From IMG/VR virus record IMGVR_UViG_2974693523_000001, positions 38,803 through 102,802 of that record: 64,000 nt of DNA, one strand, 5' to 3'. Both the position numbers and the translations under genes were made by a program. This DNA comes from a virus (taxonomy: Duplodnaviria > Heunggongvirae > Uroviricota > Caudoviricetes > Ackermannviridae). Of the stretch, positions 336 to 58,875 are shown one piece after another (the first letter of the stretch is position 1; each line of letters starts with the position of its first letter). The notes beneath the pieces were generated by a model. That model was not told where the DNA came from. It was given only the letters and a program-made list of their open reading frames with translations, and searched no databases.

Positions 336-1190
336 TTATACAGACATTGGGTATTTTAGTGGTCCGTGACTCTGATAACAAATAACATCAAAATCATCAG
401 TGTTGCATTTGAGAACATCATCCCAGTCTTTGATGCGAGGGTTAATCCATAGAATAGGTAAATCCATTGGCTCACGTTGAATTTGAATAAGCATTGTATC
501 ATATTGGTCCTCATAAATATGAGGATTTACAATGATATGAGTTGCTTCTGTAGGTTTATTACCTGTGATGCGCGCCATTAAACAAAGGAAAACAAACACC
601 TGAATCATGTTGAAATTTAATCCAAGAGGGACATCACATGAACGTTGATATGAGATCAGTGATAGATCTTTTTGAATTAAACTAAAATGATGTTGGTACA
701 TACATGGGCGTAGACAAGCCTTGTCAAAATCATCTGGTTTCCAGAAAGTGATGATTTCACCACGATCGTCAATACCCATTTTTAAATTTTCATAGACTTT
801 TGTGAATTGATTAACACCACCAAAGTCATGACCAATAACGCCATAGCATTTACCCATATCACCATCGCCGCGATAGTGTGGGTTGCTAGTCCAAGACGGA
901 CTAGATGCGTTTGCCAGCCATGTTTTAGTGCCTAATGCTACAAAGTCATAGGCATTATCATATCCCCTTAGATAACCGAGTAACTCGGCTACAGCTGACT
1001 TCCAAAAACTTTGACGTGTTGTATCCATTGGTAAGTTATTAAAATAAGCGCCATCTTCGGACATAACGGGATTGTACTCAAAAATAGCTTTTTTAAGTGT
1101 TAAGCATTTTTTACCCGTTCTTTCATTATGGATCCAAGTACCTTCTTGAACCAACTTACGACAAAGGTTTATATATTGATGATCAATCAT
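336..1190 (-). CDS. thyA: thymidylate synthase family enzyme (ThyA/Td-like; dUMP-specific by conserved Asn)
   Basis: Motifs MIDHQYINLCRKLVQEG (matches ThyA N-terminus), RTGKK, IITFWKPDD, PCMYQHHF (active-site Cys), YQRSCDVPLGLNFN. Start moved to the ATG at 1190, which has GGAGA upstream. Confidence 0.7.
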   Translation of the reverse strand: MIDHQYINLCRKLVQEGTWIHNERTGKKCLTLKKAIFEYNPVMSEDGAYFNNLPMDTTRQSFWKSAVAELLGYLRGYDNAYDFVALGTKTWLANASSPSWTSNPHYRGDGDMGKCYGVIGHDFGGVNQFTKVYENLKMGIDDRGEIITFWKPDDFDKACLRPCMYQHHFSLIQKDLSLISYQRSCDVPLGLNFNMIQVFVFLCLMARITGNKPTEATHIIVNPHIYEDQYDTMLIQIQREPMDLPILWINPRIKDWDDVLKCNTDDFDVICYQSHGPLKYPMSV

Positions 1191-29920: not shown

Positions 29921-30762
29921 ACACTGAAAAGAAACTAGAAAAGTTTCTTAAATCATATCATAAAGGCGTTGATGCCGAGGGTATGGTAAAAGCTCTTTCA
30001 GACGATGTTGTCTCAATTGAGTTTGTAATTGGCGATCCTATTCTAGCGGGATATTTGACGGCTACGAAGAACACCGTACCTCAACTACCCCAACGGAATC
30101 TAACAATTTCCATCAAACCATCTAGTAACGTTACCGCGACTTACGGTTACGTGAAGAATGGCGCTTGTGGTCAATTCAGAAACGTTTTCAAACTATACGA
30201 AAACTATTTTGGTCCTAGCAATACATTTTTTGTTCTTAAAATGACGAATGAACAAACTGTAGAAGTGCCTGCAATAATGTTTATGAATTATCTGTTAGGT
30301 ATTGTATGGAATGAGACTGTCAACAACTTTCTTGTGTCGAAGTTAGTTTATCAATCAAGAAATATCTTTAGTCGTTATTCATCAATGCTTGCTGGTTATA
30401 TCATTTGTTTGTTCTTTAAAAATTTACCAGCAGAAACATTTGTTTTTGGTTTAAGAAAAGTTGAATACAAAAATCAAAACGTATTGGGTAGTTTCGAACT
30501 GTATGTTACATCATATAATAGAACTGATGTATTCACACACGAAAAATATCTTAAGAATTTTTCTGATAATACATGTCTGTTAGTTGATGTTGGTTCAGGT
30601 AGTTTCTTTGTCAATGTAACCCGTGACAATGTAAACAACGCTATTTTTGGTGTTAATATTGACAAACACGGGTTTACTGAGGATTTCTATTTTTCTTTGT
30701 CTGATTATACAGATAATAAAAATGACATCCTTAATGAAGTACGTAATTCATTTAGTTTTTAG
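29899..30762 (+). CDS. hypothetical protein (287 aa)
   Basis: ORF. Confidence 0.5.
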   Translation: MSSSISINTEKKLEKFLKSYHKGVDAEGMVKALSDDVVSIEFVIGDPILAGYLTATKNTVPQLPQRNLTISIKPSSNVTATYGYVKNGACGQFRNVFKLYENYFGPSNTFFVLKMTNEQTVEVPAIMFMNYLLGIVWNETVNNFLVSKLVYQSRNIFSRYSSMLAGYIICLFFKNLPAETFVFGLRKVEYKNQNVLGSFELYVTSYNRTDVFTHEKYLKNFSDNTCLLVDVGSGSFFVNVTRDNVNNAIFGVNIDKHGFTEDFYFSLSDYTDNKNDILNEVRNSFSF

Positions 30763-30773
30763 AGGGATGTGAC

Positions 30774-31127
30774 ATGGCGGTTGCTATTGGTGTTCTTATT
30801 TTTGTAATTGTGTCTATTATTATATCACTTACACTAGCCAGATTTATGGCTACTGTTAAGCGTGATACAAAGTTATTGATCGGTCTTATTGACTTAAAAT
30901 TTGATGATCCAGAAGTCAAAAATGTAATTGTTTTTTCTAAACAAAATTCTATGTCTGGTAGATTTATTGTGGAGGAACTTGGTGAAGTAGGTATTCCCGT
31001 TGAGGATTACTTTCTAACTGATACATCCATAAGAACAGATATAGAAGAACATGTTAGTAAACTTGGTTATAAAATTCATTTTGAATTTGACGGAAAGTTT
31101 TTAGATCATCTACGAATTTATAAATAG
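30774..31127 (+). CDS. hypothetical membrane-anchored protein (117 aa)
   Basis: N-terminal TM helix. Confidence 0.45.
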   Translation: MAVAIGVLIFVIVSIIISLTLARFMATVKRDTKLLIGLIDLKFDDPEVKNVIVFSKQNSMSGRFIVEELGEVGIPVEDYFLTDTSIRTDIEEHVSKLGYKIHFEFDGKFLDHLRIYK

Positions 31128-31205
31128 TTTTTTCATTAAGTTTTATTGAAGTAAATTATTCTTGAACTGCCCAAGTGGGCTTCCAACAACAAACGGAGTT
31201 ACACA

Positions 31206-32849
31206 ATGTTCTCTTTAATTTTAACGATTTTGTTCATCGGTCTGGCGGTGGTAGTACCGTTCCTAGCACCGAACAAGTTTGCCAAGGTTGGCGCTGCTGT
31301 AGGCTTCGGTCTACTAGCCTTTGTTACTATGGCAATGACATCAGTTATTTCAATTCAAAAAGATCACATTGGTTTGAAGTATCGTTCTATTTTGGCTACT
31401 AACCTTCCAGCTGGGCGCATTATGATGCCCCGTGATGAAGAAGGCACCATTTACAAAGGTCCCCAACCAGATTGGTTCACCGAGGGTACGTACTTTATCC
31501 CATTTGTGAACGTGTTCTTCGATATTAAAGAAGTTCCAAAGGTTGAAGTTCCACCTAACCATTATCTGAAACTTGTTGCCCGTGACGGTAAAGATCTACC
31601 GAAGGGTGAAACAATGGCTCCCGAGTGGACTGGTTCATTTGAAGACATGCTTAGCCCAACTTCATTCCTGAACGGCGGTGGCTACAAAGGTTCTCAGCTG
31701 ACAGTTCTACCCCCTGGAAAATACGCCATCAATACGGATTTTTGGGTGGTTTCTCTAGGCAAGGCAACTGAAATCGAAACTGGTCAAGTGGGTGTTGTGC
31801 GCTCAAATGTGGCAAGCGGTCGTGTTGAGTGTCCTAAAGTAACCCAAACAGGTTCGGCACAAATTCAAGCAACGCTAGTCCCTCGTGGTTGCCGTGGTGT
31901 ATGGGCTGAGTCTCTAGAGCCTAACAAGTATTACCTACACGATGACGCCTACAAAGTAACGATCATGTCTACACGCGCTACTTCATGGGTCTATGCAGGC
32001 GGATACAAACGTCGTACTATTTCTCTAACAGTGGGAAATGATGGTTCTATTATTCAAGAACCAGATACAACGGCAGTTGGTTATGAGCCATCTAAACACG
32101 CTGGTCAAGCAGTTATCGCTAAAACTAACGATGGTCAAGAAGTACCAATCGAAATCCGTTTGCAAGCGCAAGTTCAGGCTAATAGCGCTTCGCGGGTGGT
32201 TGCTGGTGTGGGTGATTTAACTGCGGTTGAAGATCGTGTGGTTGCGCCTATTGTTAATGACATTGTGAGACAGATTGCAGCAACGGAAACCGCTTTGAAT
32301 TTGATGTCTAAACGCCAAACAATCATTGAAGCTCTTGAAAAAGCTGTTATTCCAGAAGCTGCTAAAGCGGGTGTGACAGTGACTGAAGTGCGTATCGATG
32401 ACATTGTTATTCCACCAGAAGTAACGCTCCCACAACGTCGTACCACACTAGCGACAAGTTTGGCAGCAACTTACAAACAAGAGAAAGCAGCCGCTGAAGC
32501 GCGTAAAGATTCAGAGAATGCTATTGCAGTAGCTAACCAACAAGGCACGATCGTTGCTGCACAAATGGCTCGTGACGCTGCCAAGCTGTACGGTGAAGGT
32601 GAGCGTGATCGTCTGGTCGCGGTTGCCGCAGGTCAGAAAGCTCAACTGGATGTTATTGGTCGTGAGAAAACAGTGGAACTACAAATGTTTGAGCGCTTGA
32701 TGCAAGCTGTTGAGAAGAACCCAAGTATTATCAAGGTTCCGGTCATTAGTGTGCAAGGTGGCAACGGTGGTTCATTGGAAGGTGCGGCGGCTGTGCTTGG
32801 TGCAAGCAGCAACATCGGTCAGTTCATCGGTAACACCAGTTCAAAATAA
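31206..32849 (+). CDS. SPFH/band-7 (flotillin/HflK-like) membrane protein, 547 aa
   Basis: Two N-terminal TM helices, then a prohibitin-like core (IQKDHIGLKYRS...) and a long Ala/Gln/Glu-rich C-terminal coiled coil. Architecture typical of SPFH proteins. Confidence 0.5.
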   Translation: MFSLILTILFIGLAVVVPFLAPNKFAKVGAAVGFGLLAFVTMAMTSVISIQKDHIGLKYRSILATNLPAGRIMMPRDEEGTIYKGPQPDWFTEGTYFIPFVNVFFDIKEVPKVEVPPNHYLKLVARDGKDLPKGETMAPEWTGSFEDMLSPTSFLNGGGYKGSQLTVLPPGKYAINTDFWVVSLGKATEIETGQVGVVRSNVASGRVECPKVTQTGSAQIQATLVPRGCRGVWAESLEPNKYYLHDDAYKVTIMSTRATSWVYAGGYKRRTISLTVGNDGSIIQEPDTTAVGYEPSKHAGQAVIAKTNDGQEVPIEIRLQAQVQANSASRVVAGVGDLTAVEDRVVAPIVNDIVRQIAATETALNLMSKRQTIIEALEKAVIPEAAKAGVTVTEVRIDDIVIPPEVTLPQRRTTLATSLAATYKQEKAAAEARKDSENAIAVANQQGTIVAAQMARDAAKLYGEGERDRLVAVAAGQKAQLDVIGREKTVELQMFERLMQAVEKNPSIIKVPVISVQGGNGGSLEGAAAVLGASSNIGQFIGNTSSK

Positions 32850-32863
32850 TTCTAAAATTATTT

Positions 32864-32941
32864 TTCAAAAGGGGCTTGCAAAGGCCTCTTTTTCATTTTA
32901 TAGTGAACTCAACTTAAGGCAAACACTAAAGGAAAGCCAAA
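32864..32941 (+). promoter_or_regulatory. terminator-promoter-UTR cassette (hairpin AAAAGGGGCTTGCAAAGGCCTCTTTTT; -35 TTGCAA inside the hairpin, -10 TATAGT; conserved UTR)
   Basis: Own inspection. The same module recurs upstream of 33275 and 34842. Confidence 0.5.
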
Positions 32942-33184
32942 ATGAAAGTACAAGAAGCACACAAAAACAATTTTATTAATATTGTTAATAAGGGTTATCT
33001 ACTTTGTGTAACAGATAGCATGGGTAAAACATTACTTAAACCCACAAACATCGTAGATTCTGTTATTATTGTTGTTGAAAATAATAGATATTCAGACGTT
33101 TGGGCATACGATCCTAATAGAACGGGACAACGTTCAAAATATAAACATTTAAATCAGTATGTGACATCAATTCAAAGTAGTTAA
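32942..33184 (+). CDS. hypothetical protein (80 aa)
   Basis: ORF behind the cassette. Confidence 0.45.
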   Translation: MKVQEAHKNNFINIVNKGYLLCVTDSMGKTLLKPTNIVDSVIIVVENNRYSDVWAYDPNRTGQRSKYKHLNQYVTSIQSS

Positions 33185-47324: not shown

Positions 47325-48038
47325 TTATTTATATTTTTCCAAAATAAATTTTCTTAAACCTTCAGTAAATGCCCAACACGCTTGCCCATAAGGATCTGAA
47401 ACCCACTTAACTCTATTATTACCATATTGTTCAGACGCCTTTTCTTCACTGTATTCTGCGCAATCAATACAGATTGGATAACCATGATCAACATCTAAAG
47501 AATCACAAAACGAATGCATTAGAATAGAGGCAGCTTTTTTCTGAAATTCGGTCATACCACCATAATTTACAAAATAAGCACAAAGACCAGATCCAGAAGA
47601 AAAACCACAGAATAAAACACCTTGAAGTTCTTTGTCAACCTTACTTTGATCACTAATTCGTGTCAAGAATTCACGTCTATCTAAAAGTAAATCCAATGAA
47701 GTTACTATGTCTTCTGAAATAAGTTTGATGCAATGATCATTCAAAAGAGTTTTCATTAATGATCTGCCCAGATTACGAATATAGGCATCCCTTGCACTCA
47801 TATCCATTAATGTATGAACTTTTCTTGTAAGTTTTAGAATACGTGCTTGGATAAACTCACTTTCTTGTGTTTCGATTCCCAATCTTGTATTAGACAATGC
47901 ATTAGACAAAGAAATTAGACGGAGTAAATGAGTGTCACTAAGTTTATTATTCTTAATGTCACTAAAAACCGAAATTAGATGTTTATCAATTTCTTGAGAA
48001 ACACTTTTGAGTGTTTTATCAAATATTTCTGATTTCAT
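47325..48038 (-). CDS. paralog family member 1 (237 aa), unknown function
   Basis: Shares SGLC...FC...YPICIDC...KWVSDPYGQACWAF motif series with the four genes upstream. Confidence 0.55.
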   Translation of the reverse strand: MKSEIFDKTLKSVSQEIDKHLISVFSDIKNNKLSDTHLLRLISLSNALSNTRLGIETQESEFIQARILKLTRKVHTLMDMSARDAYIRNLGRSLMKTLLNDHCIKLISEDIVTSLDLLLDRREFLTRISDQSKVDKELQGVLFCGFSSGSGLCAYFVNYGGMTEFQKKAASILMHSFCDSLDVDHGYPICIDCAEYSEEKASEQYGNNRVKWVSDPYGQACWAFTEGLRKFILEKYK

Positions 48039-48060
48039 GTTAGTACCTATTAACCAAAAG

Positions 48061-48801
48061 TTAAAAAGTTGAAGGAGTAGAAATTGTCAAAAACTCACTT
48101 TCCAAATACTTTTTGAAATTGATTACATGCTCCCAGCGCGCTTGACCATAATCACTTGAATCCCACTTCAACAAGTTTGTATCAAATTGTCTTTCTGCTT
48201 CTCTAGCATCGTAATTACCCAAACAAATTGGATAGAAAGTATCCACTTTTAAATTACGGCAATATTCTTTGTGAAGACGGCTGACAACACCATTTTCAAA
48301 AACTGTGATACCTTTTGTTTTTTCACTAATGTAGCTACAGAAACCGGATGTAATGTTACAATCCAAAACATTCACATAATTTAACTTTTTGATTTCTTTA
48401 TCTTTTAACAAGTCACTTATTTCAGTGATTACACCACGGTTTTCTAACAGTTTATCAACTAATTGAATGGAATAGTTAATACCATATCGATTGTTAGCTG
48501 CTACATTACCAAGCGCAACCATCAAAGAGTGATACAGATTTTTAGTAAACCCACTAAAAATTAAAATATCATCAATTGACTTAACATCAATAGAAATTTT
48601 TTCTAAAGTTTTAGCAACTATATTTGATACTTCGAGTCTAAATTCCGATCTATGACCATAAAACAGTGCATTATCTTTCAGACATCTAAGAAGACATTTT
48701 AGTTCATCTACATTTTCTTTATCAAATTCTACGTCTTTTAGAGCTAAGAATTCATTCTCTAGCATTTGCGCAAAAGAATCTACTTGTGTAATTGTGAGCA
48801 T
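48061..48801 (-). CDS. paralog family member 2 (246 aa)
   Basis: SGFCSYI...YPICLGNYDA...KWDSSDYGQARWEHV. Confidence 0.55.
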   Translation of the reverse strand: MLTITQVDSFAQMLENEFLALKDVEFDKENVDELKCLLRCLKDNALFYGHRSEFRLEVSNIVAKTLEKISIDVKSIDDILIFSGFTKNLYHSLMVALGNVAANNRYGINYSIQLVDKLLENRGVITEISDLLKDKEIKKLNYVNVLDCNITSGFCSYISEKTKGITVFENGVVSRLHKEYCRNLKVDTFYPICLGNYDAREAERQFDTNLLKWDSSDYGQARWEHVINFKKYLESEFLTISTPSTF

Positions 48802-49538
48802 TATTTCACCTCATCTTCAACATCAATAAATGATAGGAAATCTTCAATAAATTTCCAGCGCGCTTGACCATAATCACCTTTATCCCATTTAGGTTCTTTA
48901 CAGTATAGTTGCTCAGCAATCTTTTTATTGTATTCACCAACACAAACGGGGAAAACGTTACTGACATTGATTTTCTTACAGTAAGTGTGAAGAAGACGCT
49001 CAAAGATTTTGTACTCTAATGAAGAATCTAAATAATTCTCTACGGCTTCACACATACCACAATTAAGTGAAAGTGTACCATCAATAAACCAAATTTGTTT
49101 ATCTTCATCGTAAGCCCCACAAAATTCGGATTTAGATGCGTACTTAATGATCAACTTCTTATTGCCTAAAATAGTTCCGATACAGTGGATAACGGTACTG
49201 CGAATGTGATATGAATGAAGGCCTAACTTTGATACATAATCTTCCAAAATAGAACCAGTCCGGATCATAGCGTGTTGAATTTGTCTAAATTCATCATAAT
49301 TGAGTTGTTGTAAAGTTATTTTTTCAAAAAATTTGTAAATGAATTGATTAATAGTACCCTCACAATGTTTAAATCTTTCATCTATTGGGATAGAAGATGA
49401 CTCTGTGAACATTGTATATATGTACACAATATGATGGTAATTTTTGATAGAATCAGAGTAAAGATTTTCATCTTTTATCAACTCTTTTAAGTCTGTAAAA
49501 TAATTTTCAATAATTATTGAAACGTTTTTGGTGTTCAT
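48801..49538 (-). CDS. paralog family member 3 (245 aa)
   Basis: NCGMCEAV...FPVCVGEY...KWDKGDYGQARWKFI. Confidence 0.55.
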   Translation of the reverse strand: MNTKNVSIIIENYFTDLKELIKDENLYSDSIKNYHHIVYIYTMFTESSSIPIDERFKHCEGTINQFIYKFFEKITLQQLNYDEFRQIQHAMIRTGSILEDYVSKLGLHSYHIRSTVIHCIGTILGNKKLIIKYASKSEFCGAYDEDKQIWFIDGTLSLNCGMCEAVENYLDSSLEYKIFERLLHTYCKKINVSNVFPVCVGEYNKKIAEQLYCKEPKWDKGDYGQARWKFIEDFLSFIDVEDEVK

Positions 49539-50272
49539 TTTTGTGCCTCAATTTGTTGAAATTTGTTAAAGATGAAATTATAGAAATTTTCTACCATTTT
49601 CCAACGCGCAGCCCCATAGGGATCTGAACCCCACTTGAGAACTGAGCCATGGTATTGTTTTTCTGGTGCATCACCACAAGCGCTGACAGGATAGTTTGGG
49701 CTTAAATTATTAGCTTCACAAAATTGTGAAAATAGTGTATCCGCAAGATCGCGAAATACATCGTCTTGAGAGCTTTTAAATCTTTTATCAAAAAACTTAC
49801 ACAGACCAGAAGTTAGATCTAAAGCGCCGTTACGCATGTAGAAATCAATATCATCTCCTAATTTAGTTAATCCAGATAACTTATCACACGTTTTAATAAT
49901 ATCATGTTTATTTCTTAAGAGTAGATAAACCGTTGCTTTAATATTGTTCAACATGACCTTATTGTTAAGTGAAACCTTAACAAGATAACGATTTAAGATA
50001 ACTGACAATTCTCTACAGGATGATGAAAAATCCAAGTATTGTTCTGCATTTTCAAACTTTGTGTTGTCCTTCAAATACTCAATAATTGGTGTGGCAGCGC
50101 AGTTGACTTCACTCTCAAGGTTAAGATCACCGCAAACAAGACACTTTAATGGTTCGTGGCGTAGATAATTTGCAGTGATTATCAATTTGTTGATTGTTTC
50201 TATGTGGACAATATGATTGTCAGCTGTACGGACTAAATCACCTAGATGATTAAACAATTCATTTTTGTTCAT
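49535..50272 (-). CDS. paralog family member 4 (245 aa)
   Basis: SGLCKFF...YPVSACGDA...KWGSDPYGAARWKMV. Confidence 0.55.
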   Translation of the reverse strand: MNKNELFNHLGDLVRTADNHIVHIETINKLIITANYLRHEPLKCLVCGDLNLESEVNCAATPIIEYLKDNTKFENAEQYLDFSSSCRELSVILNRYLVKVSLNNKVMLNNIKATVYLLLRNKHDIIKTCDKLSGLTKLGDDIDFYMRNGALDLTSGLCKFFDKRFKSSQDDVFRDLADTLFSQFCEANNLSPNYPVSACGDAPEKQYHGSVLKWGSDPYGAARWKMVENFYNFIFNKFQQIEAQK

Positions 50273-51460: not shown

Positions 51461-52066
51461 TTAATGATTATTAAACTTAACAACGTTACAAGAACCTTTT
51501 AAGATTTCAGGTTTTTCAAAAACTTCATTCACATTTATCACTTCACCCGCTTGACTAGCCATTACTAGTTGTCTATATGCCGAGTAAAGATAATCCATAT
51601 GACCTTTTTCATTACACTGATCAAAGAAGAATTCAATAGTATCTTTTTCCTTTTTGTTTAGCAACCCATCATTCCTTTTTAGGTATGCTGATTTATGCAC
51701 AAGACAGCGTATAAGGGAGGGAACATGAGTTTGCTTCACTGTTGCATTGTTTGTTACTTCAAGCAAACCCCATCGTTCTGGTAGCTCATCAACGCTTATT
51801 AAACCTTTCGGCGCAATATAAAATCTGTAATGACCTACACCCCGAGACGGATCCTTTCTGTGTGGTTTTGTTTTATCCTTTAAGAAATCACTTCTGGTAG
51901 CTTTTGCTTCAATGTTGATCATCACACCTGCACGATAAGCTGCAACATCCACAATTTCCCTTGTTGTTGCGCATTTATGCTCTTTAAAGACTGCACCACA
52001 ATTCATTTGATTAGTTGCATACTTTGCCGCTATCATTACTAATTCTTCATGACTAAACATAATCAC
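51461..52066 (-). CDS. PD-(D/E)xK nuclease, VRR-NUC-like
   Basis: IVDVAAYRAGVMINIEAKAT fits D-x(n)-E-x-K. Immediately downstream of Dam, overlapping it by 14 nt. Confidence 0.4.
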   Translation of the reverse strand: MIMFSHEELVMIAAKYATNQMNCGAVFKEHKCATTREIVDVAAYRAGVMINIEAKATRSDFLKDKTKPHRKDPSRGVGHYRFYIAPKGLISVDELPERWGLLEVTNNATVKQTHVPSLIRCLVHKSAYLKRNDGLLNKKEKDTIEFFFDQCNEKGHMDYLYSAYRQLVMASQAGEVINVNEVFEKPEILKGSCNVVKFNNH

Positions 52067-52904
52067 TCTCCATTAATATAATCTTATGTTTTTTCGCAAG
52101 CTCCTTGAACAAAAATACATCAACATTTTTGATAGCGATCATTTCACGAACTGGTTTCCTACCACTAGCATCACATGACACAGAACGTCTAGCCATATAA
52201 CAGAATACCTTAAACCCTGCATCCTTATACAGATTAATGATTTCTGGCTCGTATGAATTGGTTGTAACTGTAGGACAAACAACATTTTCTAATGATTTGG
52301 CCAGTTTAACTTGGTCTTCATAAGTGAATGTGGTTTGGGAGTAACTTACAAAGGTTTTGAAATAAGGTGGGTCAACAAACAATAAATCATTAACCAAAGA
52401 CATATTAATGACATTAACAAAATCATCAATAATAAACTGATAATTTTCAATCCATTTTTGATGCGAGCGAAGATTACCTCTTATGTTTGGTGATTTTATA
52501 TTACCAAATGGGGTGTTAAATCCAGTCTTTTTAGAAAAACGACATAACCCGTTATAGCACGTCATAATGAGGTAGTAAAAATATTGTGCTTTTAGTACAT
52601 CACTCTGGCTGCTAATTCCATAAGGTGTTTGATTAAACAAATCACGAATATGTTCATAATTTTCCTTCGTATTTGTTATGTCAATATCCATATACAACCC
52701 ATTTTGCTTGATTTGTGTCCAGAAATTGATCACGTCGCGGGAGTTATCGTTAAGAATTGCTCGCTTAGGGTGTATGGCTAACGTAACTGAACACCCTCCA
52801 CAAAATGGTTCAACAACGCCTTCTAGTTTTAGACAACGATGTAATTCTCTAAGAAATGTGGTGATCCAACGTTTACCGCCTACCCATTTAATTGGTGGTT
52901 GCAT
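52053..52904 (-). CDS. dam: DNA adenine methyltransferase (Dam family, GATC-type)
   Basis: N-terminal KWVGGKR (SAM-binding) and catalytic DPPY (LFVDPPYF). Confidence 0.7.
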   Translation of the reverse strand: MQPPIKWVGGKRWITTFLRELHRCLKLEGVVEPFCGGCSVTLAIHPKRAILNDNSRDVINFWTQIKQNGLYMDIDITNTKENYEHIRDLFNQTPYGISSQSDVLKAQYFYYLIMTCYNGLCRFSKKTGFNTPFGNIKSPNIRGNLRSHQKWIENYQFIIDDFVNVINMSLVNDLLFVDPPYFKTFVSYSQTTFTYEDQVKLAKSLENVVCPTVTTNSYEPEIINLYKDAGFKVFCYMARRSVSCDASGRKPVREMIAIKNVDVFLFKELAKKHKIILMESDYV

Positions 52905-53967: not shown

Positions 53968-54723
53968 TTAACCTTGCTTTTCAATGATCTTGTTAGCTAG
54001 TCTTTCCTTACTTTTATCCTTAACACCAAAAGAATTACCAATTTCACGGACTTCTTCCATTTCCATTGCCATTAATTGGTCAAAGGTGTACTTGGTTACT
54101 TCTTCAGTTTCAGTTGGTTGCTCAACTTCAGTTTGTTCTACGACTTCTTCAGTTTCAGTTGGTTGCTCAACTTCAGTTTCAACTTCAACCTTAGTTTCTG
54201 ACTCAGTTGTTTCTGTTGGCCAGTATGATTCTTCATCTGATTCAACATTTTGGGTAGGTATTAAATGTGCGGGTGGTGTTGGAATTAGATCAGCACCTGA
54301 AGGCAAATCACCATGCACCATGTCTTCTGGCATCACGGGCAAAGCTCCAGGGAATTCACTTTGTAATTGAACTGTTTCTTGCGGTATAAACTTTTCTTCT
54401 ACAAATGTTTGTGGTTGTGAATTGAAATCTTCAACACCAAACACAACAAGAGGAGAAAAATGTTCAAAGCCGTACTTGTTTACAGTTTCAGCCCAGTATT
54501 TTGGGACATATTTATCAACTTCATTACTAACAATTTCATTACCTTCTGAAGTTAAGAAATTTTCATAAAGAATTTGATCTAAACCAAAGATTTCATAAGA
54601 GATAGAAAACCCCTTATTATCAAAACAGTTAGGGACTGCCCATCCATATTTTGTGGCAAAAGCAATACCTTCACGCGGTTGTGGTCTTGTATTCAAGTAC
54701 AATTGTATTGATTGATTGTTCAT
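53968..54723 (-). CDS. hypothetical protein with acidic tandem repeat (TEVEQPTETEEV x2) and Rho-N/SAP-like C-terminal helix-hairpin
   Basis: In-frame DNA tandem repeat at about 54090-54176; C-terminal FDQLMAMEMEEVREIGNSFGVKDKSKERLANKII resembles the Rho N-terminal domain. Confidence 0.45.
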   Translation of the reverse strand: MNNQSIQLYLNTRPQPREGIAFATKYGWAVPNCFDNKGFSISYEIFGLDQILYENFLTSEGNEIVSNEVDKYVPKYWAETVNKYGFEHFSPLVVFGVEDFNSQPQTFVEEKFIPQETVQLQSEFPGALPVMPEDMVHGDLPSGADLIPTPPAHLIPTQNVESDEESYWPTETTESETKVEVETEVEQPTETEEVVEQTEVEQPTETEEVTKYTFDQLMAMEMEEVREIGNSFGVKDKSKERLANKIIEKQG

Positions 54724-54734
54724 GATTAATTACC

Positions 54735-55589
54735 TTATTTGTGAATCCAGTTATCTAGCTTTAATTGGTTGATATAACTAGGGAGATCATGTTTTGGGGA
54801 CCAACCTAATTCTCTAACCGCATCAGTGTGTAATTTTGCACTCATCCGGTTACCCATTCGCTCAGGTTTGAATTTAATTTCACCACCAAACATAGTGGCA
54901 ACATCCAAAATAGAGTAATTGTCTTGATGTCCTATACCATATAGATCACCACTACCATGCTTTCCTACGCGAATAAGACCATCAACAATGTCACTAACAT
55001 GCGTAAAGTTACGCTCTTGATTTCCTGGGAGTGTAACGTTAAGTGGTTTACCCCTGAACATGTTGCTTCTAAAGATACCAATAACGGTACCATAGCGCCC
55101 ATTTGATATTTCTCTAGGACCATAAACGTTGTAGAAATAAGTGATTGCATAATCTATGTCATACCACTTTGCATACTCTTTTAGAGTTTCAACGTTTTGG
55201 GATTTTGATAAAGAATATGGTGAAGTTGCATCACCGAACGCTGTACTACTTCCCGCATATACAATTTTCGCACCAATATCACGAACATAATTAAAGACCG
55301 TTCTGGTACCCACAACATTAGATTGGAAAACTTTATCAACATCATCAAAACTTTCTTCAACGCGCGAATACTCACCTAAATGAAAAATAATATCAGGTGT
55401 TATTTCGAGTTGATAAATTTCAAATGTATGCATATGATGATATGTGACACCACTCACATGGTTATTCATACTACCAGTGGAATAATTATCAAGACTATGT
55501 ACTTCATAACCTTCATTAACTAAAGCTTCACATAAATGGGAGCCAATAAATCCAGCCCCACCCGTTACCAATACAACTTGCTTTTTCAT
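54735..55589 (-). CDS. NAD-dependent nucleotide-sugar epimerase/dehydratase (SDR; UDP-glucuronate decarboxylase/4-epimerase-like)
   Basis: Rossmann VLVTGGAGFIGSHL, catalytic YxxxK region (YSLSKSQ), 284 aa. Confidence 0.65.
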   Translation of the reverse strand: MKKQVVLVTGGAGFIGSHLCEALVNEGYEVHSLDNYSTGSMNNHVSGVTYHHMHTFEIYQLEITPDIIFHLGEYSRVEESFDDVDKVFQSNVVGTRTVFNYVRDIGAKIVYAGSSTAFGDATSPYSLSKSQNVETLKEYAKWYDIDYAITYFYNVYGPREISNGRYGTVIGIFRSNMFRGKPLNVTLPGNQERNFTHVSDIVDGLIRVGKHGSGDLYGIGHQDNYSILDVATMFGGEIKFKPERMGNRMSAKLHTDAVRELGWSPKHDLPSYINQLKLDNWIHK

Positions 55590-56860
55590 TAGTCTTTACC
55601 TGTAATATCACGAGAATAAACGTTAGTTGTTCCGCAGTACATTTCAAGCCTATCATCAACTCGGTTAGCGACAATAACATCTGTCATTTGACCAAACTGT
55701 TTTAGATTTTTGATGACTTTACAACCCATATATTCATTTTCTGTAATGCTAGGATCATAAATAACAATGTAATCTAAAACATCTTTACCAATTTTTTGAA
55801 GTTCTTTAATTAAATGAGAAGATGGAGACTCACGGTGATTGTCAGAACCCGCTTTCATAGCTAGTAAATAGATGCCAATGCGTTGATACCCATAACTAAG
55901 AATATCGTTTGCTATGAATTTAATGCGTGAGTCATTTGATGCAACAATGGCATTAATGATGTCTCTTGGGATTAGTGTATTCGGCTCTCCGTTAAACGTA
56001 GACGCTAATTGTTTTGTGTCCTTGGGGAAACAATAACCACCGTAACCAAACGACGGGTTAGCATACATGGAGCCGATTCTGCGATCACTTGTAACACCTG
56101 CCATAATATCAGATGATTTAAGTTCGTTTTCCAATGCAAAACTATCAAGTTCATTAAAAAATGCTACACGCATGGCAAGGTATGCGTTTGAAAACATTTT
56201 AACTGATTCAGCCGACTGAGTTGACATTTTTAAGCATTTAACTTCACTTGAATTGACACAAGCATTTTTCATCATACTAATATAAAGATTAGCAATTTCA
56301 GTTTGGTCATAAATGTTATCATAACCAATTATAATTCGGTCTGGGTTTCGGTTATCAAGAAATGCTTGACCCTCACGAAGAAATTCAGGTGAAAACATAA
56401 TATCAACACCTGTATCAGCTGATAATTTACCGCAATAACCAATAGGGATAGTTGACTTAATGACAATATTTGCATCTGGTTTAACTTTAAGAACGTCTGC
56501 AACCACTTTTTCAATAATTGATGTGTCAAATGATTGTGTTTCTGTATTGTAATTGGTGGGCACACAAACCATAACAAAATCAGAATCAGTAACAGCGCTT
56601 GATATATCAGTGGTTGCTGACAGACATTTCGTAATATCCTTACGATTTGTTTCCATAAGACGATCTGCAATTTTATCACGTACTGGTAAAATACCACTAT
56701 TGATCATCTTGACACGTTCTTCATTAATATCATTAACCACAACATTATGGTTATATTTGCTGTTGTTATAAGCTAAGAGAACAGCCATTGCAGAACCAAC
56801 ATAACCACTACCAATAATTGCAATTTTCATAGGAGTATCCTTTTGTTTAACAGTGTGCAA
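55589..56860 (-). CDS. ugd: UDP-glucose 6-dehydrogenase (UDP-glucose/GDP-mannose dehydrogenase family)
   Basis: N-terminal MKIAIIGSGYVGSAMAVLLA Rossmann and catalytic GGYCFPKDT. 423 aa. Confidence 0.7.
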   Translation of the reverse strand: MHTVKQKDTPMKIAIIGSGYVGSAMAVLLAYNNSKYNHNVVVNDINEERVKMINSGILPVRDKIADRLMETNRKDITKCLSATTDISSAVTDSDFVMVCVPTNYNTETQSFDTSIIEKVVADVLKVKPDANIVIKSTIPIGYCGKLSADTGVDIMFSPEFLREGQAFLDNRNPDRIIIGYDNIYDQTEIANLYISMMKNACVNSSEVKCLKMSTQSAESVKMFSNAYLAMRVAFFNELDSFALENELKSSDIMAGVTSDRRIGSMYANPSFGYGGYCFPKDTKQLASTFNGEPNTLIPRDIINAIVASNDSRIKFIANDILSYGYQRIGIYLLAMKAGSDNHRESPSSHLIKELQKIGKDVLDYIVIYDPSITENEYMGCKVIKNLKQFGQMTDVIVANRVDDRLEMYCGTTNVYSRDITGKD

Positions 56861-56895
56861 ACTATAGCAATTTTATCTTCATAAACATATTTAGA

Positions 56896-56924
56896 AAACA
56901 AAAACGGGGCAAAAAGCCCCGTCT
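56896..56924 (-). terminator. intrinsic terminator on minus strand (GACGGGGCTTTTTGCCCCGTTTTTGTTTT)
   Basis: 7-bp GC stem plus U-run, downstream of the 644-aa gene. Confidence 0.6.
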
Positions 56925-56940
56925 TAATTAACAACATTTA

Positions 56941-58875
56941 TTAATGTTTGTCAGCTTCACTAGTAGCGAAAGCACCTTTAGAATCAGCACGGATTTTACC
57001 ACTATGATACGCAATGGTTACATCCTCAGAAACGTAGTATTTACAACAACGAATCTTACGAGCGTTGTAATCTTGTGGGATAGCAACAATGTCAGCTGGA
57101 CTTAATTTTGCGCGCATGATCTTACTGTCAACCTTTGAGTAACCAGACATACGATTAACGTAATCCAACGAACAAACGTGAAGACCTTGAGTACATGTGG
57201 CTGATGTACTTGGATCTATTTTTGAACGGTCCATGTAAACAGTAGAACCAACAGAGTTGTCAATCTTATTAGTGTAATCATCACGATAGAACTTGTTAAC
57301 CGCTTTATAAACGTATAGATCACCGTCTTCACAGATCTGAACATCACCAAACTTCATAAAGTGTGGGATCCGTTCAATAATATCATCCAGTGGGTTTTGG
57401 AACATCTTCTGAATAAAGTTATCCAATGCATTTAGAGCGGCATAATCACCCAACTCGAGTAGGTGTTCAACTCGGTTTTGAATAATTGAAATTGATGGAT
57501 GTACTTTTACATCTTTAATCTTAATTACAATACCTTCACCTACACTGTATTTGAAGTGAATACCTTCATAAGCAGAAATGTCTTTAATACCTTGAGCGGC
57601 AAGGAACGCGGCGTTATTATCACCCATAACTAAACAGCGATAGACCTCGTCATACCCTGTACTTCCTTTGGTCACAGTGATTTGTTTACCACTTTCCAAT
57701 TCAATCATTTGAATCTGTGTGGCTGTTGAGAATACGCGATAACCACCACCTGATTGAGGTACCAAGTCCTTATTATCACAACTCATACGCTTCTGATAAA
57801 CTTTTTCACTAACTTTAATAAGCAATTGCTCATTATTGCGTTGAGTTTTTGTAACATCAACCTCGGTTAGATCATAGCTTTTATCAGCAATATCACGAAT
57901 GATAAATTCTTTGATGATATTTGAATCAGGGCTAATTTCAATAGTATTACCTTCGCGATCAATAAATTGACCTAGTGTTTCCGCTTGTAGAATGATCTTT
58001 AAATCGTATGCAAAACCACTAGCAAATTCACAAGCAACAACCTCACTTTCGTTATCCAATTCTACTTCATCACCTAACAGAAGTAAGGTTTGGATATGCT
58101 CTAGTTTAATGCTGTCAACATTTTTCAATAGTTTAGAGCAATCAACTACGACTGTTTTTAAGTCGTTTTGTGAAACAACAAAATAGTTACGATTAATTGA
58201 GCGATCTTCAATATTCGTATCTTCACTGTTTTTAAAGATAAAAATTGTCCCAGGCATCATATCTTTAAGGATTTGTTTACTTACGGCAAGTGATGCAATT
58301 TCACCTTCTTTAAAGTATTCAATTTTCAAAGCCATAAGTTTGTCTAGCTTATTACGACTCCAACCTAATTCATCCATATACTGTTGTTTTGTTTTAACAC
58401 CAGTTTTGATATTCTCTTGGATTTCAATTAAGGTTTCAGGTGGGATTTCAGTAAAATCACCTTTTTTAGCCGTTGCCAAAACATCTTTAAATCTATCAAG
58501 ATTTTCAGGTTTAGAAGCAAAGTTGTTGAAATCCATACGGCCTTGCTCAATAAGTATTTCTAAACGATACTTACTAGGGATATTATATTTTTTCATTATC
58601 CCAGGACGTGAAAGACGTTCTGTATTTACGCCTTCATAATCCATATAAACCTTAACCGCAAGCCCATCAGGGATTTTGCTTTCTACAGGTTTTTCTTTTT
58701 CGGTTACAGAGGTTTTTTCAAACTTCTCTTTTGCGCGAGGTACCAACAGGCACGTTTTATACATAGACAAACCAATACGACCTTTGATTTGTTCCCTTGT
58801 CAGACCTTGTTGGACATACTCAAAAATTCTTTTTAGAAGATCTAAATCTTCCATTTCTTTAATAAACACTGGCAT
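56941..58875 (-). CDS. hypothetical protein (644 aa), co-oriented with the GHKL gene
   Basis: Long ORF with no recognisable motif; own terminator. Confidence 0.5.
   Translation of the reverse strand: MPVFIKEMEDLDLLKRIFEYVQQGLTREQIKGRIGLSMYKTCLLVPRAKEKFEKTSVTEKEKPVESKIPDGLAVKVYMDYEGVNTERLSRPGIMKKYNIPSKYRLEILIEQGRMDFNNFASKPENLDRFKDVLATAKKGDFTEIPPETLIEIQENIKTGVKTKQQYMDELGWSRNKLDKLMALKIEYFKEGEIASLAVSKQILKDMMPGTIFIFKNSEDTNIEDRSINRNYFVVSQNDLKTVVVDCSKLLKNVDSIKLEHIQTLLLLGDEVELDNESEVVACEFASGFAYDLKIILQAETLGQFIDREGNTIEISPDSNIIKEFIIRDIADKSYDLTEVDVTKTQRNNEQLLIKVSEKVYQKRMSCDNKDLVPQSGGGYRVFSTATQIQMIELESGKQITVTKGSTGYDEVYRCLVMGDNNAAFLAAQGIKDISAYEGIHFKYSVGEGIVIKIKDVKVHPSISIIQNRVEHLLELGDYAALNALDNFIQKMFQNPLDDIIERIPHFMKFGDVQICEDGDLYVYKAVNKFYRDDYTNKIDNSVGSTVYMDRSKIDPSTSATCTQGLHVCSLDYVNRMSGYSKVDSKIMRAKLSPADIVAIPQDYNARKIRCCKYYVSEDVTIAYHSGKIRADSKGAFATSEADKH

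Follow-up and report, generated by a model that had tools for sequence, protein, structure and literature searches.

Why a lytic phage should carry its own genes for an activated sugar acid, and where the resulting sugar is placed, are the questions raised by a gene pair in the 64,000-nucleotide stretch of DNA analysed here (referred to as the window). The window matches Vibrio phage vB_VchM_Kuja (Ackermannviridae; NC_048827/MN718199) at 100% identity. Kuja is in culture, infects pandemic Vibrio cholerae O1 El Tor as a lytic phage and is considered for phage therapy, and its GenBank record already annotates the pair as a UDP-glucose dehydrogenase (Ugd) and a wcaG nucleotide-sugar epimerase. 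A preliminary description of the locus proposed that the two enzymes together could make UDP-glucuronate and a decarboxylated or epimerised nucleotide sugar, serving either hypermodification of DNA bases or remodelling of host surface glycans. Sugars on phage DNA decide escape from restriction, CRISPR and glycosylase defences, and also which modification-dependent nucleases kill the phage. Our literature search found no paper on the sugar genes or the DNA of Kuja. The evidence presented below makes the Ugd-SDR pair a probable, predicted sugar-donor module for glycosylation of the phage DNA.

Both open reading frames exist on the minus strand where the preliminary description had placed them. 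The Ugd gene (gp100; 55589..56830) encodes 413 aa and the gene of the extended short-chain dehydrogenase/reductase (SDR; gp101, wcaG; 54735..55589) encodes 284 aa, and the motifs that had been quoted for them were all found (GGYCFPKD in Ugd; GGAGFIGSHL and Y125-S-L-S-K129 in the SDR). The genes had been described as lying back to back; they are in fact arranged head-to-tail, not convergently, with one base shared by the stop codon of Ugd and the start codon of the SDR gene (TAATG), and constitute a translationally coupled two-gene unit. The longest Ugd open reading frame (55589-56860) has a TTG start. The real start is almost certainly the ATG at 56830, as annotated in GenBank, since an AAGGA ribosome-binding site, read from the sequence (56838..56842, minus strand), lies 7 nt upstream of it and the TTG at 56860 falls within the untranslated leader, immediately behind a TGcTATAGT extended -10-like element. 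This element (56861..56869, minus strand), noticed by eye, is a possible promoter element for the Ugd-SDR unit and was not among the reports of a two-hexamer promoter scan. Further upstream, an intrinsic-terminator-like hairpin behind rIIB (56901..56925, minus strand; 10-bp stem with 6 GC pairs, followed by a T-run) sets the unit apart from rIIB. Downstream, gp102 (53968..54723, minus strand), whose acidic, repeat-containing product has DUF7440 at its C-terminus, starts 12 nt past the stop codon of the SDR gene, with which it probably shares a transcript. This tight spacing is, together with the one-base overlap and the upstream terminator, an operon-like sign. For the genes specific to Kuja that follow the pair (gp106, gp107 and gp109-112), PHROG and Pfam searches gave no informative match. 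The product of gp105 is Dam-like and may place 6mA in the DNA.

To judge from its sequence, gp100 is an intact UDP-glucose 6-dehydrogenase that has kept all the catalytic residues. It matches the three UDPG_MGDP_dh domains of Pfam (PF03721, E=1.7e-35; PF00984, E=1.2e-22; PF03720, E=6.1e-10), all over the gathering scores and in a complete layout of N-terminal NAD-binding, central and C-terminal UDP-binding domains, and it scores 291 bits with the nucleotide-sugar dehydrogenase model TIGR03026 of NCBIfam (cut-off 189.8). The solved Ugd structures 7kws and 3pln match it at E=6e-88, and in the alignment to 7kws the motifs GSGYVG, KSTIP, SPEFLREG, VKMFSNAYLA and GGYCFPKD are all conserved. The residues checked were the Cys of GGxCxxKD, the Lys and Asn of VKxFxN, the Thr of KST, the Glu of PEFLxEG and the GxGxxG motif, with catalytic roles that we take to be those of the Streptococcus pyogenes UGDH. 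The substrate would be UDP-Glc, since the best matches are Ugd proteins and the models for ManNAc, GDP-Man and GlcNAc dehydrogenases scored far lower. The enterobacterial Ugd equivalog PRK15057 scored 319.8 against a cut-off of 757, and the nearest homologs outside Kuja are bacterial proteins of 388 aa that are 46% identical.

The SDR matches PF01370 (E=2.9e-40) and carries the Rossmann motif T9-GGAGFIGS and the catalytic residues S114/S115, Y125 and K129. Its AlphaFold model (pLDDT 91.6) has its best structural matches among UDP-hexose 4-epimerases (GalE structures, TM 0.87-0.89), and the top 12 Foldseek matches are UDP-hexose/UDP-HexNAc 4-epimerases or epimerase-annotated homologs; for this enzyme, as for Ugd, the family assignment of the preliminary description was right. 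None of the curated equivalog models was reached by the SDR, which scored 69 bits with the galE model TIGR01179 (cut-off 262) and 81 bits with the 4,6-dehydratase model TIGR01181 (cut-off 365). Compared with Thermotoga GalE, moreover, 14 residues are deleted between the catalytic Ser and Tyr, a deletion predicted to reshape the sugar pocket. Because of the galE score and of this deletion, the SDR is said here to work like a 4-epimerase and is not placed in a named epimerase family. It has the Ser/Tyr/Lys triad of the 4-epimerases without extra acid/base residues: the T-D-E pair of 4,6-dehydratases (RmlB/GMD) was sought and S114-S115-T116 was found instead, with no Glu or Asp-Glu behind the catalytic Ser. 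The signature of UDP-glucuronate decarboxylases (UXS/ArnA) was also sought, and neither its Glu nor its Arg is present in the SDR. The position of the Glu in the T-S-E motif is an invariant Thr (T116) among 30 members of the SDR family, which comprises proteins of ~288 aa that are 55-61% identical, and the position aligned with R277 of hUXS1 is Ala in Kuja and variable across the family. The SDR probably acts on UDP-GlcA in the manner of a 4-epimerase, with UDP-galacturonate as the favoured product and a decarboxylated pentose as the main alternative.

That alternative, which retains the same pathway and target, is the likeliest of those considered: after C4 oxidation the beta-keto acid would lose CO2 to give UDP-xylose or UDP-4-keto-pentose, and a pentose would be placed on the DNA. 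It is general SDR chemistry that 4-keto-uronates decarboxylate readily, and with the profile of the SDR family, human UDP-xylose synthase reaches the level of the best epimerases (1.5e-38 versus 2.5e-38, which is nearly equal). Pentose-modified phage DNA, besides, exists (PMC12838424, PMC13326640). Decarboxylation, one of the two options of the preliminary description, is nevertheless not favoured, because the Glu of UXS/ArnA is missing and the Arg is not conserved, and the top structural matches are 4-epimerases; we regard it as possible, if rather doubtful.

A third protein had been drawn into the pathway by the preliminary description as an enzyme that could also hydroxymethylate, namely the thymidylate synthase (TS) homolog gp044 at the other end of the window (336..1190, minus strand; PF00303, E=4.9e-61). 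In this superfamily (E. coli numbering), D143 is diagnostic of hydroxymethylases, D177 of dCMP specificity and N169 of 5hodCMP synthases (PMC13326640). The residues found in gp044, L143, C146, D169 and N177, together with the C-terminus, are those of a canonical TS, its motif being L-R-P-C at the site at which the dU-hydroxymethyltransferase of phage ViI has D-M-I-C, and the protein is 55-63% identical to the products of TS genes of N4-like and T5-like phages. On these diagnostic residues and this relatedness a hydroxymethylase function was rejected, and gp044 looks like a canonical dTMP-forming TS that is outside the sugar pathway. Since no other TS-superfamily open reading frame was found in the Kuja genome with tblastn, phmmer or hmmsearch, a hydroxymethyl acceptor route is unsupported. 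The protein gp090 was also considered as a TS, because its position resembles that of thyA in ViI, but it is a homolog of ViI 062c and no TS. TET/JBP enzymes and hmU kinases were not found by Pfam scans of 67 hypothetical proteins of Kuja, and no hydroxymethylase, 5-hydroxy-pyrimidine synthase or TET enzyme is recognisable in this phage. For the ViI dU-hydroxymethyltransferase, 5-HMUDK (PF18748), gp160 (PF18723) and PLP enzyme, tblastn on the whole Kuja genome rendered no match better than E=0.6, and the PF18748 and PF18723 models, which do recognise the ViI proteins, recognised none of the Kuja proteins scanned. This lack of the 5-hmdU pathway genes of the Ackermannviridae makes a different modification plausible in Kuja.

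A glycosyltransferase partner, for which a search of the genome had been proposed, was found outside the window, ~62 kb from the Ugd-SDR pair. The genes gp032 and gp033 encode tandem paralogs, 63% identical to each other, of the PF20691 family (TAGT, TET-associated glycosyltransferase; E=4e-31 and 1e-33; 109 and 117 bits; cut-off 27.5), which also match PHROG 842 ("beta-glucosyl-HMC-alpha-glucosyltransferase"). With a WL(F/M)DDN motif (GT-A DxD-type), a maximum hydropathy of 1.1 and no hydrophobic segment, both read as soluble GT-A-type glycosyltransferases; both have an additional basic domain at the N-terminus. The T2/T6 beta-glucosyl-HMC alpha-glucosyltransferase belongs to PF20691, a family whose characterised members act on DNA (PMC13216743, PMC13390438), while the function of the "solitary" TAGT homologs is still called undefined (PMC13216743). 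Close homologs of the Kuja proteins adjoin genes for DNA polymerase, RNR, dUTPase or C5 DNA methylase on phage-sized contigs, and a census of neighbours at 80 TAGT loci rendered for the most part genes for portal, terminase and replication proteins from small phages, and no clue to the acceptor.

Given the distance of 62 kb, the linkage of TAGT to the Ugd-SDR pair in Kuja is drawn by analogy only, with uncultured phages. In 10 of the 15 IMG/VR viral contigs that encode an SDR at least 47% identical to that of Kuja, a TAGT gene is located within ~1.1 kb upstream of the SDR gene, mostly directly adjacent to it. The viral loci containing both TAGT and SDR genes are 13 and represent at least 11 lineages (between-lineage SDR identity, 33-69%); a Ugd-like open reading frame is also present in nine of them, including one (L020) in which Ugd is full-length and the order is TAGT-Ugd-SDR. 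Examples of contigs with TAGT, SDR and Ugd are 3300021437_000020 (62 kb) and 3300043470_001091 (35 kb). The cassettes sit among genes for PolB, clamp, clamp loader, dCMP deaminase, DNA ligase, ThyX and dUTPase. The fact that the closest viral relatives of the SDR stand beside TAGT in at least 11 lineages indicates that the Ugd-SDR pair likely supplies a new sugar decoration of DNA. A search for an acceptor-making gene common to Kuja and the cassette contigs rendered only TAGT, Ugd, SDR and replication genes. In a scan of a genome collection with the SDR alignment, the generic Rossmann pattern dominated and two of 80 loci were true family members.

It could also be the case that the pair is an auxiliary metabolic cassette, taken over from the O-antigen or capsule locus of a bacterium, that acts on the host envelope, not on DNA. 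Such a cassette could drain UDP-glucose or supply UDP-GlcA/GalA and so alter envelope glycans, resulting in superinfection exclusion or in less adsorption of progeny to debris. The closest homologs of both Ugd and the SDR are bacterial; the two genes are adjacent, and in the same order, in polysaccharide loci of Marinomonas (L004) and of an Oceanospirillaceae MAG (L101), both marine gammaproteobacteria; the pair was inserted downstream of rIIB in a particular lineage and is missing from K352 and Kuttervirus; and the SDR and Ugd genes of many cyanophages are usually read in this way. However, Pfam scans of 67 hypothetical proteins of Kuja showed no membrane-associated glycosyltransferase, flippase, polymerase or lipid-carrier enzyme, the only glycosyltransferases of this phage are the soluble TAGT proteins, and among viruses the nearest relatives of the SDR are tied to TAGT in replication modules, not to envelope genes. 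Of the two roles put forward in the preliminary description, DNA hypermodification has gained from the TAGT partner in Kuja and from the linkage of the SDR family to TAGT and Ugd-like genes; for the surface-glycan role, which is considered unlikely, the scans gave no sign.

Less likely still is a plain UDP-glucose/UDP-galactose (or UDP-GlcNAc) 4-epimerase function of the SDR that is independent of Ugd, the two genes being mere neighbours. Besides the GalE-type structural matches, this would be consistent with the three TAGT-SDR viral loci that have no Ugd at all (L197, L200 and L227) and with the three of five bacterial family loci that have no Ugd nearby. Against it stand the one-base overlap of the genes in Kuja, the Ugd or Ugd-like neighbours in nine of the 13 viral cassettes and in two of the five bacterial loci, where the adjacency argues that the SDR uses the product of Ugd, and the low galE score and Ser-Tyr deletion described above.

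Phage-encoded glycosyltransferases that decorate capsids are known. That TAGT fed by Ugd and the SDR glycosylates proteins of the virion, other phage proteins or a small molecule, as the undetectable acceptor-base pathway of Kuja and the undefined function of solitary TAGT homologs (PMC13216743) would allow, is nonetheless improbable, since the characterised PF20691 members act on DNA (PMC13216743, PMC13390438) and TAGT genes and cassettes are found among replication and nucleotide-metabolism genes or beside DNA methylases, not in structural modules.

In the preferred reading, DNA glycosylation, Ugd would oxidise host UDP-glucose to UDP-glucuronate with two NAD+, as its strong homology and intact catalytic residues suggest. 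The SDR would then transiently oxidise C4 of UDP-GlcA and return the hydride to the other face, giving most likely UDP-galacturonate, because the enzyme has none of the acid/base residues of decarboxylases and dehydratases. As gene linkage in other phages points to, this product may be the donor for gp032 and/or gp033, which, to go by the role of the family in T2/T6 and by its genomic company, would glycosylate the phage DNA after replication and protect it from host nucleases. Against this reading count the failure of the searches to find in Kuja an enzyme that would put a hydroxyl acceptor on a base, the distance of the TAGT genes from the pair and the undefined function of solitary TAGT homologs. 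So do the three TAGT-SDR viral loci with no Ugd and the short Ugd-like open reading frames, missing the UDP-binding domain, of most of the others, which imply that the SDR may not depend on UDP-GlcA. To the pathway as a whole we give about an even chance.

The sugars known on phage DNA are glucose, gentiobiose, arabinose, galactose/glucose chains, GlcNAc and an undefined pentose, and we know of no description of a glycosidically linked uronic acid. We tentatively propose, as the less probable outcome, that Kuja and at least 11 uncultured T4-like lineages place a uronic acid, or else a pentose made from it, on their DNA through TAGT fed by phage Ugd and SDR, with an acceptor that in Kuja is made by no known hydroxymethylase, 5-hydroxylase or TET enzyme. 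If this were true, a uronic acid would bring more negative charge into the major groove, with effects on packaging, sequencing and enzyme recognition; Kuja would have a new acceptor-making route or would glycosylate a canonical base directly; and one lineage of Ackermannviridae would have traded an amino-ether thymidine modification for a sugar-acid modification. The recurrent TAGT-SDR-Ugd cassette would moreover be a concrete handle on the role of many solitary TAGT homologs. Should the prediction of DNA glycosylation fail, the pair would be an ordinary captured polysaccharide cassette.

Among known systems, the TAGT of T2/T6 (PF20691; glucosyl/gentiobiosyl-hmC DNA) has the GT-A family, solubility and the DxD-like motif in common with gp032 and gp033, for which a UDP-sugar as donor and DNA as a post-replicative target are likewise expected. 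The T-even phages use host UDP-glucose as donor and an acceptor made by dCMP hydroxymethylase, whereas in Kuja a hydroxymethylase and an alpha- or beta-GT are missing, TAGT is present in two copies, and enzymes of the phage itself would make a donor other than glucose. Precedents for phage-made sugar nucleotides in DNA decoration are the Ugd of Bacillus phage SP-15 (PMC5977210) and the UDP-arabinose of RB69/DLP3 (PMC13326640), SP-15 being the only match of our literature search for a phage Ugd connected with DNA modification. The SP-15 enzyme (gene 146), thought to supply uronic acid for DNA decoration (PMC5977210), is 30% identical to Kuja Ugd and is encoded in a cluster that resembles those for teichoic acid and contains further transferases; the DNA of that phage carries glucose and phosphoglucuronolactone on dihydroxypentyluracil, the uronate being phosphodiester-linked, an hmU synthase is present, and a TAGT or an SDR of the Kuja family has not been reported in it. 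The arabinosyl-5-hydroxycytosine phages RB69 and DLP3 and the hexosyl-5hoC phage RL38JI also combine a nucleotide-sugar pathway of their own with DNA glycosyltransferases (PMC13326640), but they employ an isomerase/kinase/phosphatase/pyrophosphorylase route or a mutase and other glycosyltransferase families, and their 5hodCMP synthase is a TS homolog with D169N, a position at which the Kuja TS keeps D169. Salmonella phage ViI, with the 5-NeOmdU pathway that is a hallmark of the Ackermannviridae, belongs to the same family as Kuja and shares with it the dNMP kinase and dUTPase_2 genes, and differs in the four modification proteins searched for above, which are not detectable in Kuja.

At the level of the enzymes, the Bacillus cereus UDP-glucuronate 4-epimerase (6zld) and human UXS1 have the extended-SDR fold, the NAD+-binding motif, the Ser/Tyr/Lys triad and the expected substrate, UDP-GlcA, in common with the Kuja SDR, which is only ~25% identical to them, is ~40 residues shorter with the Ser-Tyr loop deleted, and has a family-specific HLGEY-RVE-S motif and no UXS Glu. 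Closest in organisation are the bacterial O-antigen/capsule pairs (L004 and L101), which share with Kuja both families, the order of the genes and their tight spacing (Ugd 41-43% and SDR 51-55% identical). They differ in lacking TAGT and in being embedded among Wzx/Wzy, GT2/GT4 and initiating transferases, and such pairs are the likely evolutionary source of the pair in Kuja.

Over positions 54000-58000 the window is 100% identical to Vibrio phage vB_VchM_Kuja (NC_048827/MN718199), a 148,180-bp member of the Ackermannviridae, genus Kujavirus, that infects Vibrio cholerae O1 El Tor; subtracting 38,802 from a record position gives the window position. The existing record annotates gp100 as a UDP-glucose dehydrogenase (here Ugd) and gp101 as a wcaG nucleotide-sugar epimerase (here SDR), and no paper on either protein or on the DNA chemistry of Kuja was found in the literature searched. 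Both ORFs, which a preliminary description had connected with DNA hypermodification or host glycans, are present on the minus strand with matching Pfam domains and every motif quoted for them. The SDR (54735-55589) has 284 aa (PF01370, E=2.9e-40). Ugd carries three UDPG_MGDP_dh domains; its longest ORF opens at TTG 56860, inside the leader, and its start was taken as ATG 56830. Directly 3' of rIIB on the minus strand lies a strong terminator-like hairpin (56925-56901; 10-bp stem and T-run), followed by a TGcTATAGT element, an AAGGA ribosome-binding site and ATG 56830. The TGcTATAGT element, read by eye and not reported by a tool, is a putative promoter element of the Ugd-SDR unit, and the hairpin is predicted to set Ugd, the SDR, gp102 and the following genes apart as their own transcription unit. 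The Ugd stop and SDR start overlap by one base (TAATG) and gp102 starts 12 nt past the SDR stop, which argues for a tight unit, probably with translational coupling.

Probably co-transcribed with the SDR, gp102 (53968-54723, minus strand) combines long acidic repeats rich in Thr and Glu (VEQPTETEEV) with a C-terminal DUF7440, which resembles a helix-extended-helix nucleic-acid-binding motif. Further along the same strand are gp105, a Dam-like D12 N6-adenine methyltransferase (52053-52904), and an overlapping 199-aa PHROG 631 protein (51461-52060) weakly resembling 'DNA repair protein' families. Neither is found in Salmonella phage ViI, a member of the family with 5-NeOmdU thymidine hypermodification, and Kuja DNA is in any case likely to be adenine-methylated, judging from gp105. 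A few genes downstream of the pair, an orphan array of four tandem paralogous ORFs of ca. 237-246 aa (gp112-gp109; 47325-50272, minus strand) has no Pfam family, PHROG family or ViI homolog.

The predicted conversion of UDP-Glc to UDP-GlcA by Ugd is well supported by homology. The protein scores 291 bits with NCBIfam TIGR03026 (cut-off 189.8) and far lower with models for ManNAc, GlcNAc and GDP-Man dehydrogenases, and over its whole length it aligns with solved bacterial enzymes (7kws and 3pln, E~6e-88; 1dli, 2e-80), keeping the catalytic Cys motif, the Lys/Asn segment, KST, PEFLREG and GxGxxG. Its closest relatives outside Kuja are bacterial 388-aa enzymes (43-47% identity). The SDR belongs to a large family of ca. 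280-295 aa proteins (55-61% identity), none of them characterised, that occur in metagenomes, candidate-phyla bacteria, Methylotenera and Marinomonas; no NCBIfam equivalog model reaches its cut-off. Among solved folds, its confident AlphaFold model (pLDDT 91.6) comes nearest to UDP-hexose and UDP-HexNAc 4-epimerases (TM 0.85-0.89), and human UDP-xylose synthase ranks just below; the family profile gives UXS1 and Thermotoga GalE the same score. S114-S115-T116, Y125 and K129 of the catalytic centre are invariant across the family, the Glu that UXS and ArnA carry two residues past the catalytic Thr is a Thr, and the active-site comparison showed no Asp-Glu pair of the 4,6-dehydratases. Compared with Thermotoga GalE, the Ser-Tyr loop lacks 14 residues, and an HLGEY-RVE-S motif is peculiar to the family. 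From these residues and the model we conclude that the SDR probably works like a 4-epimerase, assignable to no named epimerase family. UDP-GalA would be its best candidate product, at slightly under even odds; UDP-Xyl or a 4-keto-pentose is a less probable one, and something else is the remaining alternative. Decarboxylation by the SDR is possible, and a pathway that includes it, though less probable, would be compatible with the chain of reactions proposed below.

The search for a glycosyltransferase partner that the preliminary description had suggested led to two genes outside the window, gp032 and gp033 (record 30264-31604 and 31594-32952, minus strand; locus L007), tandem paralogs with 63% identity that match the TET-associated glycosyltransferase family (TAGT, PF20691; E=4e-31 and 1e-33). 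Both have a WL(F/M)DDN motif and a basic N-terminal extension of ca. 140 aa, and neither has a hydrophobic segment. The family, of GT-A fold, includes the T2/T6 enzyme that adds a second glucose to glucosyl-hmC DNA, as well as 'solitary' members of undefined function in many phages (PMC13216743, PMC13390438). The two genes adjoin a DNA end-protector gene; unrelated small genes occupy the matching position in ViI. Relatives of gp033 were found in only 23 phage records, none of them from Ackermannviridae other than Kuja, and the best 120 in a large protein collection all lie on contigs of at most 414 kb, mostly phage-sized. Among three sampled TAGT neighbourhoods, DNA polymerase III, helicase and ligase occur in one, RNR, dUTPase and primase in another, and a C5 DNA methylase, a Dam-like methylase and ThyX in the third. 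A 77-kb ENA metagenome contig (L262, 10001-16097) apparently holds another kind of DNA-modification module built on a TAGT: downstream of a close TAGT homolog come genes for a C5 DNA methylase, a NADAR protein, a Dam-like methylase and ThyX, and upstream of it is one for serine hydroxymethyltransferase.

Three scans of IMG/VR (initial, TAGT-seeded and SDR-family-seeded) linked these glycosyltransferases to the SDR. In L010, from the first scan, a TAGT (E=5e-42), an SDR 53% identical to that of Kuja and a Ugd-like ORF follow one another, co-directional and overlapping, between PolB and dCMP deaminase, clamp and clamp loader genes. The TAGT-seeded scan yielded L020, with the order exonuclease, TAGT, full-length Ugd (42% identical), SDR (57%), ThyX, dUTPase_2 and PolB. 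Among the 80 loci of the SDR-seeded scan, a TAGT lies at most ca. 1.1 kb upstream, mostly as immediate neighbour, in 8 of the 13 whose SDR is at least 47% identical to Kuja's, but in only 3 of the 67 with 36-44% identity. L010 and L020 bring the TAGT-linked share of the close viral relatives to 10 of 15. A Ugd-like ORF is also present in 9 of the 13 TAGT+SDR loci, among which SDR identities are 33-69% (two near-duplicate pairs excepted), so that at least 11 lineages retain the linkage. As in Kuja, TAGT copies stand in tandem (two or three) at several loci, and further neighbours include DNA ligase, a DenV-like glycosylase, terminase and a small cytidylyltransferase-like ORF. A recurrent Ugd-like protein is short (ca. 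273-304 aa; L010 6143-7057, L194 6746-7591, also L181, L187, L188 and L189), with a partial NAD domain and the central domain, lacking the C-terminal UDP-binding domain. The 134-aa cytidylyltransferase-like ORF of L194 (7588-7992), between the Ugd-like gene and the SDR, hints that some cassettes may activate a further substrate. This linkage pattern is as would be expected if the SDR makes the TAGT donor, and would place the module with DNA metabolism, not the cell envelope.

A Marinomonas polysaccharide locus (L004; Ugd 41% identical to Kuja's) and an Oceanospirillaceae MAG (L101; 43%) have the same Ugd-to-SDR order, with gaps of 2-5 nt, and three other bacterial SDR-family loci have no Ugd nearby, so the association is frequent, not obligatory. 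TAGT genes are absent from all of the bacterial Ugd-SDR loci. In a set of 50,697 phage records, Kuja alone has the pair (runners-up, SDR 37% and Ugd 41% identity) and no other Ackermannviridae has either gene; in the related Vibrio phage K352, as in a Kuttervirus, small unrelated genes lie 3' of rIIB. Taken together, these phage comparisons identify the pair as a lineage-specific insertion. That it is a metabolic cassette aimed at the host, as the polysaccharide locus could suggest, is unlikely beside the viral cassettes. That the SDR is a plain GalE with no relation to Ugd is more doubtful still: the 4-epimerase folds and the unpaired bacterial loci are consistent with it, the overlapping genes in Kuja and the recurrent Ugd-like ORFs argue against it.

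As to the acceptor, the thymidylate synthase homolog at 336-1190, put forward earlier as a possible hydroxymethylase, retains L143, C146, D169 and N177 (E. coli numbering) and the TS C-terminus. In PMC13326640, N177 is given as the determinant of dUMP specificity, D169N as the mark of 5-hydroxy-dCMP synthases, and residue 143 as correlating with whether a methyl or a hydroxymethyl product is made; residue 143 is Asp in the ViI dU-hydroxymethyltransferase. With canonical residues at 143, 169 and 177, and greatest similarity to the enzymes of N4-like and T5-like phages (55-63% identity), the hydroxymethylase link was rejected. No second TS-superfamily ORF exists among 492 stop-to-stop ORFs of Kuja. 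Comparison of the whole genome with ViI (L098-L100) found no homolog of dU-hmt, 5-HMUDK, gp160 or the PLP enzyme, and Pfam models, which do detect the ViI proteins in ViI, found neither those families nor TET/JBP nor a further glycosyltransferase among 67 Kuja hypothetical proteins; dNMP kinase and dUTPase_2 are kept. Kuja has therefore lost or never had the thymidine hypermodification that is the hallmark of the family, contradicting a review statement that its genes are Ackermannviridae-wide, and, with a canonical TS only and no TET/JBP, no known hydroxylated-pyrimidine route is visible. Either the acceptor comes from an unrecognised protein (of the 118 Kuja ORFs with 140 aa or more, 58 lack a ViI homolog), or the TAGT uses a different nucleophile, or its target is not DNA; this last option agrees with the missing route but, given the family function and gene neighbourhood, is the least probable of the rival readings.

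We propose that Ugd converts host UDP-Glc to UDP-GlcA, that the SDR would convert this, most probably to UDP-GalA, and that one or both TAGT paralogs would transfer the sugar to replicated phage DNA. The complete chain has, in our estimate, about an even chance of being correct; the TAGT partners and the conserved viral cassette have strengthened the idea of DNA hypermodification. Ugd and SDR genes are individually known, and what we rate as new is the proposed Ugd/SDR-TAGT module, a coupling with no description in the literature searched. Among phages that encode sugar-nucleotide synthesis to decorate their DNA, RB69 and DLP3 (arabinose) and RL38JI (galactofuranose) are established cases (PMC13326640) and SP-15, with glucuronate, is a proposed one (PMC5977210); in phage Thanatos a UDP-xylose pyrophosphorylase has been linked to a pentose-cytosine (PMC12838424).
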